The translations under genes and the position numbers were made by a program. A DNA stretch of 15,204 nt, from the UHGV virus genome UHGV-1767466, one strand, 5' to 3'. Below are positions 1,462-15,204 of this stretch, in pieces. The notes beneath the pieces are model-generated. The model did not search any database. It was not told the origin of the DNA and saw only the letters and a list, made by a program, of their open reading frames with translations. The stretch's first letter is position 1. The number at the start of each line of letters is the position of its first letter. The stretch comes from a virus.

Positions 1462-2142
1462 TTACAGAACCCACCACCTGATCGAATCTGTGGGTATGGT
1501 TGCAGCCTCGACATTCTGGATCATACCCAACTCGGTGGCCCTTCCCGGATCAATGATGGTTGCAGAAGTGATCAAATTAGCCCAGTCAATTTGCTCATCT
1601 GGGGCTACAGCGAGAGCCTCGATATTCATCACCTGCACAAATCTTTGCAAGTCGTCATCCAGACATGCCGCCCATTCCCTAAGCCTGAGGTGATCTGCTT
1701 GTGGGGCGGCAAATCCCCAATGTAAAGGATGTAATAAAAATCGCGAGAGAGGATTAGCAAACCGCTCAGATCCAGCCATGAAAATAACATTTGCTATAGA
1801 TTCCACGTTACTAAGGTTATGTGTCTTCACCTTTACAGGAAGAGACTTAAGAAAGTTGTATGCGGTAAAACCTGCAACGGTATCTCCACCTTTACTAGAG
1901 ATGTAAATCCTGATCTCAGAGGCTGGTTGGTTAGGGCTTGATATCGCTTTGAGGCAAACATCCATAAGGCTGGATACAGAAGCAACTGTCACATCTGTCA
2001 TGAAGTGTACGGTATGGATCATTTCAGTTTCCCAGAGATATGCCGCAATTGGCATTTTCATAATGCACATAAAGTGAAAAGTTTTCTGCGTAAACCCGGA
2101 TGAAATAATTTCATGAAGTAAGGCATTACAGAAGCCCTTCAT
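1462..2142 (-). CDS. ClpP-fold (S14/S49-like) serine peptidase homolog, moron gene (up to 226 aa; start uncertain, internal ATGs at codons 25/28/30)
   Basis: Translation aligns by eye to E. coli ClpP over the catalytic core. IRIYISSKGGDTVAGFTAY matches IYLYINSPGGVITAGMSIY. A Ser lies 31 residues after the GG (VESIAN vs QAASMG). ERFANPLSRFLLHP matches KRFCLPNSRVMIHQP, with His at the equivalent spot. The gene is the only minus-strand gene in the region, is AT-rich relative to its neighbours, and has its own terminator. Confidence 0.6.
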   Translation of the reverse strand: MKGFCNALLHEIISSGFTQKTFHFMCIMKMPIAAYLWETEMIHTVHFMTDVTVASVSSLMDVCLKAISSPNQPASEIRIYISSKGGDTVAGFTAYNFLKSLPVKVKTHNLSNVESIANVIFMAGSERFANPLSRFLLHPLHWGFAAPQADHLRLREWAACLDDDLQRFVQVMNIEALAVAPDEQIDWANLITSATIIDPGRATELGMIQNVEAATIPTDSIRWWVL

Positions 2143-9443: not shown

Positions 9444-9924
9444 TTTTCAGCAGCCCGCGGAGATGCGCTTTAACCGCGCCCGTGTCAGGCGGGCGTTTGT
9501 CACGATTGGTCAGCGTCATATGCGTGATGCCCGTCGGCTGGTGATGCGCCGTGCGCGGTCGGCACCGGGTGAAAACCCCGGTTATCAGACCGGACGCCTG
9601 GCTCGTTCGATTGGTTACATGGTGCCGAGAGCCAGTAAAAAGCGAGCCGGTTTTATGACACGCATTGCCCCTAACCAGCGCAACGGGAAGGGGAACCGGA
9701 TGATCTCTGGTGACTTCTATCCGGCGTTTCTGTTTTTTGGTGTCCGGGGAGGAGCAAAACGTCGTCGCAGCCATCATCGTGGTGCATCCGGTGGCAGCGG
9801 CTGGCGACTGGCTCCACGTAATAACTTTATGGTGGAAACTCTTGAAAAGAACCGCAGCTGGACACGCTATTTTCTGGCGCGGGAATTGCGTAAATCACTG
9901 AAGCCGGAGCGACGACACAGATGA
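9418..9924 (+). CDS. HK97 gp10-like neck / tail-component protein (168 aa)
   Basis: Strong SD GGAGG (9408-9412) 5 nt before ATG 9418. Highly basic, Arg-rich protein in the neck-gene position. Stop overlaps the next start (ATGA at 9921-9924). Confidence 0.55.
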   Translation: MTTSFLHVDFQQPAEMRFNRARVRRAFVTIGQRHMRDARRLVMRRARSAPGENPGYQTGRLARSIGYMVPRASKKRAGFMTRIAPNQRNGKGNRMISGDFYPAFLFFGVRGGAKRRRSHHRGASGGSGWRLAPRNNFMVETLEKNRSWTRYFLARELRKSLKPERRHR

Positions 9925-10481
9925 AACTGACGCCTGTTATTGCTGCGCTGCGTGCCCGCTGCCCGTATTTTGAAAACCGGGTGGCAGGCGCGGCACAGTT
10001 CAAAAATCTGCCGGAGGTCGGAAAGCTGAGACTCCCGGCGGCGTATGTGGTACCGGGTGATGACTCTCCGGGAGAAAACAAAAGCCAGACCGACTACTGG
10101 CAGGAGCTGAAAGAGGGCTTCTCCGTGGTTGTCATACTGAGTAACGGGCGTGATGAGCGCGGTCAGTTTGCCTCGTATGATGTGGTGGACGATGTCCGGC
10201 AGATGCTCTTTAAGGCCCTGCTGGGCTGGAACCCGGAAGCGTGCGGTAACCCGATTACCTATGACGGCGGCACGCTGCTGGATCTGAATCGTCATGAGCT
10301 GATTTATCAGTTCGATTTTTCGGTCATCAGCGAGCTGACTGAAGACGATACCCGCCAGCAGGATGATCTGAACAGTCTGGATGAACTGCAAACGCTGGCG
10401 ATTGATGTTGATTATCTCGAGCCCGGTAACGGGCCTGACGGCGATATCGAACATCACACCGAAATAACCCTTCCTTCCTGA
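9921..10481 (+). CDS. Putative tail terminator / tail completion protein with strongly acidic C-terminus (186 aa)
   Basis: Coupled to the upstream neck gene and immediately precedes the sheath block. C-terminal ~50 aa are Asp/Glu-rich (ELTEDDTRQQDDLNSLDELQTLAIDVDYLEPGNGPDGDIEHHTE). Function assigned by position only. Confidence 0.45.
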   Translation: MKLTPVIAALRARCPYFENRVAGAAQFKNLPEVGKLRLPAAYVVPGDDSPGENKSQTDYWQELKEGFSVVVILSNGRDERGQFASYDVVDDVRQMLFKALLGWNPEACGNPITYDGGTLLDLNRHELIYQFDFSVISELTEDDTRQQDDLNSLDELQTLAIDVDYLEPGNGPDGDIEHHTEITLPS

Positions 10482-12140: not shown

Positions 12141-12496
12141 TGGCCCGTATCGGGGGAACCTGTTATTTCAAAATTGACGGTCAGCAGCTATCGCTGACCG
12201 GCGGCATTGAGGTGCCCATGAACAGGACGGTCAATGATGACATCATCGGCCTGGACGGTTCAGTGGACCGCAAGGAAACTCACCGTGCGCCTTATGTCAA
12301 AGGGACCTTCAAGGTGCCGAAGAATTTTCCGGTGAGCAAAATCACCTCGTCTGATGAGATGACAATCACTGCCGAGCTGGCGAACGGTCAGGTCTATGTA
12401 CTGTCGTCTGCCTGGCTGCACGGCGAAGCGAACCATAATGCCGAAGAAGGCACGGTCGATCTTGAGTTCCACGGTGAAGAAGGGGATTACCAGTAA
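12140..12496 (+). CDS. Tail tube protein (Mu gpM-like), 118 aa
   Basis: Small gene directly after the sheath. Its stop overlaps the chaperone start (TAATG at 12494-12498). Size typical of contractile-tail tube proteins. Confidence 0.8.
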   Translation: MARIGGTCYFKIDGQQLSLTGGIEVPMNRTVNDDIIGLDGSVDRKETHRAPYVKGTFKVPKNFPVSKITSSDEMTITAELANGQVYVLSSAWLHGEANHNAEEGTVDLEFHGEEGDYQ

Positions 12497-12765
12497 TGAA
12501 AGAGCTTGAGTTAAAGAAACCGATTACCGCTCATGGCGAGACACTCTCCGTACTGGAGTTTGATGAGCCCACCGGGAAGGATGTCCGCGAGTTGGGGTAT
12601 CCCTACCAGATGAATCAGGATGAGTCAGTCAGACTTCTGGCGCATGTGGTGTCGAAATACATTGTGCGGCTGGCGAAAGTGCCGCAAAGCTCTGTCGACC
12701 AGATGTCTCCGGCAGACCTGAATGCAGCGGCGTGGCTTGTGGCCGGTTTTTTCCTCCAGGCCTGA
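12496..12765 (+). CDS. Tail assembly chaperone (short, in-frame product), 89 aa
   Basis: Located between the tube and tape measure genes. It has a -1 frame ORF overlapping its 3' end that runs up to the tape measure start, the conserved arrangement for tail assembly chaperones. Confidence 0.75.
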   Translation: MKELELKKPITAHGETLSVLEFDEPTGKDVRELGYPYQMNQDESVRLLAHVVSKYIVRLAKVPQSSVDQMSPADLNAAAWLVAGFFLQA

Positions 12766-12914
12766 CGGCTGAATACCTCACTGATCGCTTCTTTGACTGC
12801 GCCTGCTACTGGCGCATTAATCCTTTCGAATTGCTGAATATGCCGATCAGTGAAATTCCCTTGCTGGTCAGTCAGGCAAACAGGATAGAGCAGGAGAAAC
12901 GCACACATGGCTGA
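12496..12914 (+). CDS. Tail assembly chaperone, long product via programmed -1 ribosomal frameshift (join 12496..12753, 12753..12914; about 139 aa)
   Basis: Slippery heptamer T_TTT_TTC at 12747-12753 in the zero frame (codons GGT TTT TTC). After a -1 slip the reading continues FFPPGLTAEYL... to TGA at 12912-12914, overlapping the tape measure ATG at 12907. Confidence 0.55.
12747..12753 (+). promoter_or_regulatory. Putative -1 frameshift slippery site (T TTT TTC)
   Basis: Fits X_XXY_YYZ in the chaperone zero frame, 10 nt upstream of the zero-frame stop. The -1 frame is open from here to 12914. Confidence 0.5.
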
Positions 12915-13308
12915 ATTTGAGCTTAAGGCGTTGATCACCGGTGTCGACAGGCTTTCTCCCGCGCTGTCGAAAATGCAAAAGAAAATCCGGGGATTTAAAC
13001 GCCAGGCGGAAGAAGCGTCACAGGGTGGGCTGGCGCTTGGTGGAGGACTGGCAGCGGGGCTGACGCTTTCCCTGAAATCTTATGCCGATCAGGAAAACGC
13101 CGCTACCGGGCTGAAAGTCGCCATGATGGATGCGAACGGCGAGGTTGGAAAGAGCTTTCAGGACATCAATAAACTGGCTATTGGCCTGGGTAACCAGCTA
13201 CCCGGTACAACGGCTGATTTCCAGAACATGATGCAGATGCTGGTGCGTCAGGGGATCCCGGCAGAAAACATTCTGGGTGGTGTGGGTAAAGCGACAGCTT
13301 ATCTGTAA
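12907..13308 (+). pseudogene. Tape measure protein, N-terminal fragment only (133 codons); gene interrupted by IS66-family insertion
   Basis: Starts where the frameshifted chaperone ends. The N-terminus (MAEFELKALITGVDRLSPALSKMQKKIRGFKRQAEEAS...) is typical of tape measure proteins, which are normally 600-1000 aa. Here the frame ends at TAA 13306-13308, supplied by the first bases of the IS end (GTAAGCG from 13305). Confidence 0.8.
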
Positions 13309-13389
13309 GCGTAAAGCCAATGCCGTCTGTAACACCTGCTCCTTGCAGACTAAATTAGAGCTCCTTCTAAATTAGACGGAGTTCTATTG

Positions 13390-13824
13390 ATGGATAAACC
13401 TACAGACTGGCGCTCCGGAACCCGCCGGATATTTTCTAATGAATTTAAACTTCATATGGTTGAACTGGCTTCGAAACCAAATGCCAATGTTGCACAACTG
13501 GCCCGGGAACATGGCGTTGATAACAACCTGATTTTTAAATGGCTACGCCTCTGGCAAAGAGAAGGACGTATTTCTCGTAGAATGCCTCCAACTATTGTAG
13601 GCCCTACAGTATCACAATCTTTTCCGGCCTCTCCGACTCTGGTTCCAGTGGAACTTATCGACACCCCGCGCTGTGCTACAGATGCTCCTGCTCCGGGGGC
13701 ATTATCAGTTGCTTGTGCAGCTTCCTGCCATGTGGAATTCCATTACGGTAAAATGATGCTGGAAAATCCTTCACCAGAGCTGCTCACGGTGTTGATCCGT
13801 GAGCTGACCGGGAGGGGACGATGA
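13390..13824 (+). CDS. tnpA: IS66-family accessory protein TnpA (orfA, HTH), 144 aa
   Basis: ATG 13390 preceded by GGAG (13378-13381) at 8-nt spacing; the ORF track begins one codon earlier at TTG 13387. N-terminal helix-turn-helix-like region (SNEFKLHMVELASKPNANVAQLAREHGVDNNLIFKWLR). Stop overlaps the tnpB start (ATGA at 13821-13824). Confidence 0.8.
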   Translation: MDKPTDWRSGTRRIFSNEFKLHMVELASKPNANVAQLAREHGVDNNLIFKWLRLWQREGRISRRMPPTIVGPTVSQSFPASPTLVPVELIDTPRCATDAPAPGALSVACAASCHVEFHYGKMMLENPSPELLTVLIRELTGRGR

Positions 13825-14171
13825 TTTCACTCCCATCAGGTACCCGTATCTGGCTCGTTGCCGGCGTTACTGATATGCGTAAATCCTTCAATGGTCTGGG
13901 GGAGCAGATACAGCATGTGCTGGATGATAACCCCTTCTCCGGTCACCTGTTTATCTTCCGTGGCCGACGGGGAGACACGATTAAAATCCTGTGGGCTGAT
14001 GCTGATGGTCTGTGCCTGTTCACCAAACGCCTTGAGGAAGGTCAGTTTATCTGGCCTGCGGTGCGTGACGGTAAGATATCCATTACCCGCTCGCAACTGG
14101 CAATGCTCCTCGATAAGCTGGACTGGCGTCAGCCAAAAACATCCCGCCTTAACGCACTGACAATGTTGTAA
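13821..14171 (+). CDS. tnpB: IS66-family TnpB (orf2), 116 aa
   Basis: Translation MISLPSGTRIWLVAGVTDMRKSFNGLGEQIQHVLDDNPFSGHLFIFRGRRGDTIKILWADADGLCLFTKRLEEGQFIWP matches the conserved IS66 Orf2/TnpB family as I recall it. Size and position fit. Confidence 0.88.
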   Translation: MISLPSGTRIWLVAGVTDMRKSFNGLGEQIQHVLDDNPFSGHLFIFRGRRGDTIKILWADADGLCLFTKRLEEGQFIWPAVRDGKISITRSQLAMLLDKLDWRQPKTSRLNALTML

Positions 14172-14201
14172 AAAACTCCTGACCGCATTATAAAAACGGC
14201 C

Positions 14202-15204
14202 ATGAGTCAGAAATACCTCATTCGCATCGCTGAGCTGGAAAGGCTGCTCTCTGAGCAGGCTGAAGCCCTCCGTCAGAAAGACCAGCAACTGAGTCTGGTT
14301 GAAGAGACGGAGGCCTTCCTGCGCTCTGCACTGGCACGTGCCGAAGAAAAGATCGAAGAAGATGAGCGAGAAATAGAGCATCTGCGGGCTCAGATAGAAA
14401 AACTGCGCCGGATGCTGTTCGGAACCCGTTCTGAAAAACTGCGTCGTGAGGTTGAACAGGCTGAAGCCCTGCTGAAACAACGCGAGCAGGAAAGCGATCG
14501 TTACAGTGGGCGTGAGGATGACCCGCTGGTTCCCCGCCAGTTGCGACAGTCGCGCCATCGTCGTCCGTTACCGGCACATCTCCCCCGTGAAATATACCGC
14601 CTGGAGCCTGAAGAAAGCTGTTGCCCGGAGTGTGGCGGTGAGCTGGATTATCTGGGGGAAGTCAGCGCAGAACAACTGGAACTGGTGAGCAGCGCCCTGA
14701 AAGTGATCCGCACAGAACGGGTAAAAAAAGCCTGTACAAAATGTGACTGCATCGTTGAAGCACCGGCGCCGTCCCGCCCGATAGAGCGTGGTATCGCGGG
14801 CCCCGGATTACTTGCCCGCGTGTTAACGGGAAAATACTGCGAACACCTGCCACTGTATCGTCAGAGTGAAATCTTTGCCCGACAGGGTGTCGAACTGAGC
14901 CGTGCATTACTCTCCAACTGGGTTGACGCGTGCTGCCAGTTAATGACGCCGCTGAATGATGCCCTGTACCGTTATGTGATGAATACCCGCAAGCTTCACA
15001 CTGACGACACACCGGTAAAGGTACTGGCACCGGGCCTGAAAAAGACGAAAACAGGGCGCATCTGGACGTATGTCCGGGATGATCGCAATGCGGGTTCGTC
15101 ATCTCCTCCGGCGGTCTGGTTCGCGTACTCATCGAACCGGCAGGGGAAACACCCGGAGCAACACCTCCGCCCCTTCCGGGGTATCCTGCAGGCGGATGCG
15201 TTCA
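14202..15204 (+). CDS. tnpC: IS66-family transposase TnpC, 5' partial (334 codons; 3' end beyond window)
   Basis: Open frame from ATG 14202 to the window end with no stop (own translation; not in the ORF track because it is open-ended). N-terminal leucine-zipper-like coiled coil (LERLLSEQAEALRQKDQQLSLVEETEAFLR), CxxC...CxxC zinc-finger motif (CCPECGGEL...CTKCDC), then a DDE-type core (LHTDDTPVKVL) as in IS66 transposases. Confidence 0.85.
   Translation, partial: MSQKYLIRIAELERLLSEQAEALRQKDQQLSLVEETEAFLRSALARAEEKIEEDEREIEHLRAQIEKLRRMLFGTRSEKLRREVEQAEALLKQREQESDRYSGREDDPLVPRQLRQSRHRRPLPAHLPREIYRLEPEESCCPECGGELDYLGEVSAEQLELVSSALKVIRTERVKKACTKCDCIVEAPAPSRPIERGIAGPGLLARVLTGKYCEHLPLYRQSEIFARQGVELSRALLSNWVDACCQLMTPLNDALYRYVMNTRKLHTDDTPVKVLAPGLKKTKTGRIWTYVRDDRNAGSSSPPAVWFAYSSNRQGKHPEQHLRPFRGILQADAF

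Follow-up and report, generated by a model that had tools for sequence, protein, structure and literature searches.

The tape measure protein starts and sizes the tail tube and is required for tail assembly, as established for lambda gpH, T4 gp29 and P2 gpT. Elements of the IS66 family are said to be defined by imperfect terminal inverted repeats starting GTAAGCG, a description attributed to ISfinder, Han et al. 2001 and Gourbeyre et al. 2010. An 8-bp target-site duplication is reported for IS66, as cited in PMC6778807. The prophage analysed here shares 97-98% nucleotide identity and the same gene order with the serotype-converting Shigella flexneri phages SfV, SfI and SfII and with the E. coli phage vB_EcoM-689R6, the identity spanning the connector, sheath, tube and chaperone genes plus 398 nt at the start of the tape measure gene. 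This match places it in the SfV group, with an HK97-like head, a Mu-like contractile tail and E. coli or Shigella as host, and identity to E. coli prophages of the same group reached up to 99.4%. The matches to SfI, SfII, SfV and vB_EcoM-689R6 ended exactly at position 13304 (query 4305) of the window, the whole 15,204-nt stretch of virus genome UHGV-1767466 that was analysed. We consider it very likely that codon 133 of the tape measure gene in this SfV/SfI/SfII-type prophage was hit by transposition of ISEc47, a 2541-bp IS66-family element, leaving a stub and a presumed tail defect.

Upstream genes on the window encode a holin, lysozyme, HNH endonuclease, terminase, portal, protease, capsid and connector, followed by a tail terminator, sheath, tube and tail assembly chaperone ahead of the tape measure gene. 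These genes are the same length as in the intact relative, a prophage of E. coli 30EVA1 (L001), and the remainder of the visible morphogenesis module is intact. DNA-circularisation and baseplate genes lie 3′ of the tape measure gene both in L001 and in L002, a sister contig of the window. The chaperone gene (12496-12765, plus strand; PF10109, E 2e-16) is overlapped by an ORF in the -1 frame (12732-12914, plus strand) that also overlaps the start of the tape measure gene, and a slippery T_TTT_TTC lies at the 3′ end of the chaperone gene (12747-12753). The arrangement looks like a programmed -1 frameshift that would yield a long chaperone form; the record of the relative annotates the short form only. 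The chaperone with its -1 extension (12496..12914) places the gene that follows as the tape measure gene. Elsewhere on the window, a 226-aa ORF with a Clp-protease domain (1462-2142, minus strand; PF00574, E 7e-12) separates the lysis genes from the HNH/terminase genes. E. coli 30EVA1 carries an unrelated DUF6236 gene in the same slot, and the two different genes at one position indicate a variable cargo slot.

The truncated tape measure gene (12907..13308, plus strand) has an ATG start, 133 codons and a TAA stop made of IS bases 2-4. Codon 133 is split by the junction as CT/G, its third base being IS base 1, and still encodes Leu as in the intact gene (CTT). Aligned with the intact gene of E. 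coli 30EVA1, the window was identical up to 13304 except for one substitution and then broke off, the intact gene reading on as TGCAGTACAACTG. The same breakpoint, 13304, was found in the comparisons with the intact tape measure genes of SfV, SfI and SfII. The 2.7 kb upstream of the junction was present at 95-99.4% identity in approximately 900 complete E. coli genomes, whose annotations call the gene a tape measure gene. The last 8 bp before the junction, GCTTATCT (13297..13304, unstranded), form the left copy of a target-site duplication and occur as a single copy in the intact gene (L001:14699-14706). TIGR01760, whose cut-off is 28.8 bits, gave the 133-aa product 46.2 bits (positions 2-82 of a 349-position model) and the intact 610-aa homologue 174.5 bits (model positions 2-348, aa 46-405). 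The homologue also matched PF10145 at 95.5 bits (aa 88-296), and the IS cut therefore falls within the conserved domain.

Beyond the junction lies the IS66-family element ISEc47 (13305..15204, plus strand), of which the window holds the first 1900 of 2541 bp, the 3′ part lying beyond the window end. Copies carrying the annotation 'IS66-like element ISEc47 family transposase' on chromosomes and plasmids of E. coli agreed with this stretch at 100% identity. The blastn match begins at 13304 owing to one base of chance flank match, giving 1900-1901 bp. The full length of 2541 bp was measured in L002 (10399-12939) and at other loci. The left terminal inverted repeat (GTAAGCGTAAAGCC..., 13305..13331, plus strand) pairs perfectly with the right end over its first 8 bp and imperfectly thereafter, with approximately 16 of 27 positions pairing when counted by eye; in L002 an inverted pair, I24, was detected at 10399-10409 and 12929-12939. 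The IS66 terminus is thus present on both sides, as GTAAGCG at 13305 on the left and as ...GACGCTTAC on the right in L002.

Three genes follow in the order tnpA, tnpB, tnpC. The first, tnpA (13390-13824, plus strand), encodes a 144-aa helix-turn-helix accessory protein with a match to PF01527 (E 2e-10; 41 bits against a threshold of 24) and was also called in L002. It scored below the cut-off on two NCBIfam models for IS66 TnpA (66.8 against 74 and 61.9 against 150 bits), and its position and size fit IS66. The start of tnpB (13821-14171, plus strand) overlaps the stop of tnpA as ATGA (13821-13824), and its 116-aa product is the IS66 Orf2 accessory protein (PF05717, E 3e-36; NF033819, 119 bits against a cut-off of 50). 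The DDE transposase gene tnpC (14202..15204, plus strand) is 537 codons long, of which the window covers the initial 334 without reaching a stop, and these 334 aa matched PF13007, PF13005 and PF03050, corresponding to the leucine zipper, zinc finger and DDE domains. Full-length TnpC in L002 matched NF033517 at 450 bits against a cut-off of 180. The full-length ISEc47 copy that transposed was probably active. Antisense ORFs had no match to any NCBIfam family, and the one at 13836-14558 (240 aa), which was considered as a gene, was taken as spurious. The leader ahead of tnpA (13340-13377) carries CTCCTT followed by CTAAATTAGA twice, 17 nt apart, which may be a regulatory or binding repeat. The preliminary description had read the locus as a tape measure ORF cut after about 133 codons at a TAA created by an IS66-type end, with tnpA, tnpB and tnpC behind it, and this was borne out: GTAAGCG (13305-13311) and the TAA within it (13306-13308) are read directly, the ORF encodes 133 aa where the intact gene has approximately 610 codons, and tnpB and tnpC are confirmed by Pfam and NCBIfam matches, with tnpA matching PF01527. 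The junction and the IS pattern are not a chance arrangement.

A look-up by the exact 133-aa product returned ten contigs, and the complete insertion was found by no other route. It lies in L002, a 4.9-Mb contig of GCA_009867545.1. Over 12.3 kb this contig agrees with the window at 99.68% identity; the junction is the same, and the shared part of the IS shows no difference. The window itself stops within tnpC, and the right end and the duplication were seen only in this sister contig. There the element ends ...GTTGACGCTTAC and is followed by GCTTATCT and then TGCGGTACAACTG, such that GCTTATCT flanks the IS on both sides (10391-10398 and 12940-12947). From the second copy, the tape measure frame can be read on for 481 codons until the natural stop, and beyond it lie DNA-circularisation, baseplate and tail-fibre genes, the baseplate genes being intact. 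No second tape measure gene was found in the tail module of L002. The preliminary description had predicted a right inverted repeat ending ...TTAC, a right-hand copy of the 8 bp and resumption of the tape measure frame, all of which were found in L002, and had named an intact tape measure gene elsewhere in the prophage as evidence to the contrary, of which the L002 tail module held none.

L002 differs from the window by 37 substitutions and two gaps, with 32 mismatched positions falling in a single 500-bp bin (9500-10000). Two ENA metagenome contigs with the same left junction, L003 and L004, likewise show 32 mismatches in this bin, whereas the IS-free L001 shows only four, and the bin is a recombination patch among prophages with the same IS insertion. 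The window ends at 15204 on the same base as L003. This shared end suggests that the window is probably a whole assembly contig broken inside the repeated IS, with the element not truly truncated at 15204. Six of the ten look-up contigs (L006-L011) end 1-3 nt past the target site, at positions corresponding to window 13305-13307, with the intact reading CTT, CTTG or CTTGC. They were rejected as insertions, the sequence past the site being that of the intact gene, and were retrieved because a gene cut at the contig end at that point yields the same 133 aa. These contigs may break where they do because co-resident prophage copies commonly differ by a SNP at 13275/13278.

Two other accounts of the locus were weighed against a simple insertion into the tape measure gene. 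The 133-aa ORF could be a separate small gene that ends by chance at the IS, and taken alone the fragment does fall below threshold on Pfam (PF10145, positions 1-43 of 201; 21 bits against 33.2). This shortfall arises because the IS cuts the domain after 43 of its 201 positions, and the fragment passes the curated model TIGR01760. It also aligns with residues 1-133 of 610-aa tape measure proteins, differing from the 30EVA1 protein by a single substitution, it directly follows a chaperone with a -1 frame extension, and the remainder of the protein lies beyond the IS in L002. Homology, TIGR01760 and this remainder refute an independent gene, to which we give practically no credence, and uphold the earlier reading of the ORF as a truncated tape measure. 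Alternatively, two IS66 copies could have mediated a deletion or inversion that produced the junction, with the rest of the tape measure and tail genes missing or elsewhere. The window ends within the IS and its right side lies beyond it, IS66 copies in Agrobacterium are documented to recombine with each other, so that the 8-mers on the two flanks no longer match (PMC6778807), and several of the sampled ISEc47 copies carry different 8-mers on their two sides. A simple insertion would be expected to give a right junction of ...CGCTTAC / GCTTATCT / TGC(A/G)GTACAACTG. Against a rearrangement, the 8 bp are duplicated without mismatch in L002, which has the same left junction and the same IS as well as collinear tail genes, and L003 and L004 share the left junction; we regard a rearrangement as very improbable. 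The structure of L002 demonstrates simple transposition with an 8-bp duplication, a stop supplied by the IS terminus and a gene split into a 133-aa stub and a presumably promoter-less remainder. IS66 transposase cut GCTTATCT with an 8-bp stagger, and these 8 bp were duplicated on repair. The conserved terminus GTAAGCG sets a TAA directly after codon 133, such that the normal start gives only an N-terminal stub of 133 aa, with the approximately 480 remaining codons 2.5 kb of IS away. The identity of the IS to copies elsewhere, together with the otherwise intact module, points to a recent event.

A further alternative concerns the site rather than the event, namely that IS66-family elements prefer GCTTATCT, which lies in codons 131-133 of the tape measure gene in SfV-type prophages, as a target, and that the gene is disrupted recurrently rather than by a one-off accident. 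A Logan contig (SRR26349127; L005:10370-10426, corresponding to window 13275-13332) carries a different IS66-family element at the same tape measure nucleotide. Its prophage is 97.3% identical to the window, with eight differences within 300 nt of the junction, and the joined IS end is the tnpC-proximal one, GTAAGCGTGCAGTGAGAACCGTATTGAC, in the opposite orientation to ISEc47 here. A different element in the opposite orientation in a diverged prophage makes the L005 insertion an independent event, and the coincidence of two IS66 members, opposite orientations and diverged prophages at one nucleotide hints at target preference. Half of the eight flanks gathered for the L005 element read NNTTAWCT. 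Two of 129 other distinct ISEc47 target duplications, drawn from metagenome and viral contigs, were within one mismatch of GCTTATCT, against approximately 0.2 expected by hand calculation from the target-matrix frequencies, and when a reconstructed prophage stretch was scored with the empirical target matrix, the site came 89th among 20,284 positions. The matrix is weak, however, at approximately 1.3 bits per half-site. The look-up by the exact 133-aa product that returned L005 could return same-site events only. None of 975 segment copies in 902 complete E. coli genomes had an IS66 end at the site, all 975 matches of the 78-nt junction query reaching only 13304, and the junction patterns were absent from genome and metagenome collections. 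A strong ISEc47 target consensus was sought and rejected, the 129 duplications yielding only a weak A/T-rich core that does not establish a hot spot. We consider recurrent targeting doubtful overall: given a look-up limited to same-site events and the absence from 975 copies, a true IS66 hot spot at GCTTATCT is possible but unproven. If true, IS66 would have an undescribed sequence- or structure-directed target choice that repeatedly disables SfV-type prophages, and in either case the second insertion at the same site offers a small lead for studies of IS66 target choice.

The insertion allele is rare. The junction was absent from all 5,426 complete RefSeq E. coli genomes searched. Exact junction patterns of 40 nt and 24 nt had no match in species-representative genomes, and the 24-nt pattern had none in JGI metagenome contigs. 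A literature search on ISEc47 and GCA_009867545.1 returned nothing useful.

Tail tubes depend on the tape measure protein for both their initiation and their length, and the prophage on its own would therefore be expected to give tail-less particles, that is, heads without functional tails. Prophages of the SfV type are present in up to 3-4 copies per genome among complete E. coli genomes, and with more than one copy often present the tail defect could be complemented; a co-resident related prophage may supply the tape measure protein in trans. A probable tail defect, as the preliminary description had proposed, is a reasonable conclusion, to which complementation in trans adds a caveat absent from that description. 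Complementation of defective O157 prophages by co-resident prophages is described in PMC2669165. Downstream of the IS, an internal ATG (Met151) starts a 461-aa ORF from which a C-terminal tape measure fragment may be expressed. Consensus scans of the IS in L002 gave no convincing promoter for this fragment. Promoter- and terminator-like sites in the L002 IS were no more numerous than in shuffled sequence, and the scans are therefore uninformative on its expression. For annotation, the label of this prophage should state that its tape measure gene is split by an IS and that it probably cannot produce tails of its own; the ORFs of 133 aa and 461 aa on either side of the IS are parts of a single gene.

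Set beside the named element, the insertion has the same tnpA-tnpB-tnpC order, the same GTAAGCG termini and 100% identity over 1900 bp, and the 2541-bp length and 8-bp duplication, both seen in L002, also agree; location alone differs. An IS hit on a prophage morphogenesis gene is a well-known, ordinary route to a defective prophage, and the present case illustrates how one recent hit can render an otherwise complete SfV-like prophage defective. The defective prophages of E. coli O157 Sakai, as described in PMC2669165, likewise carry an IS in a particle-formation gene of a prophage that is otherwise largely intact. In Sakai Sp4 the IS lies, according to the same source, in the terminase small subunit gene, and the IS, the prophage type and the gene all differ from those found here. 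SfV, SfI, SfII and vB_EcoM-689R6 are viable phages whose tape measure gene is unbroken, whereas in the prophage described here that gene is split by the IS.
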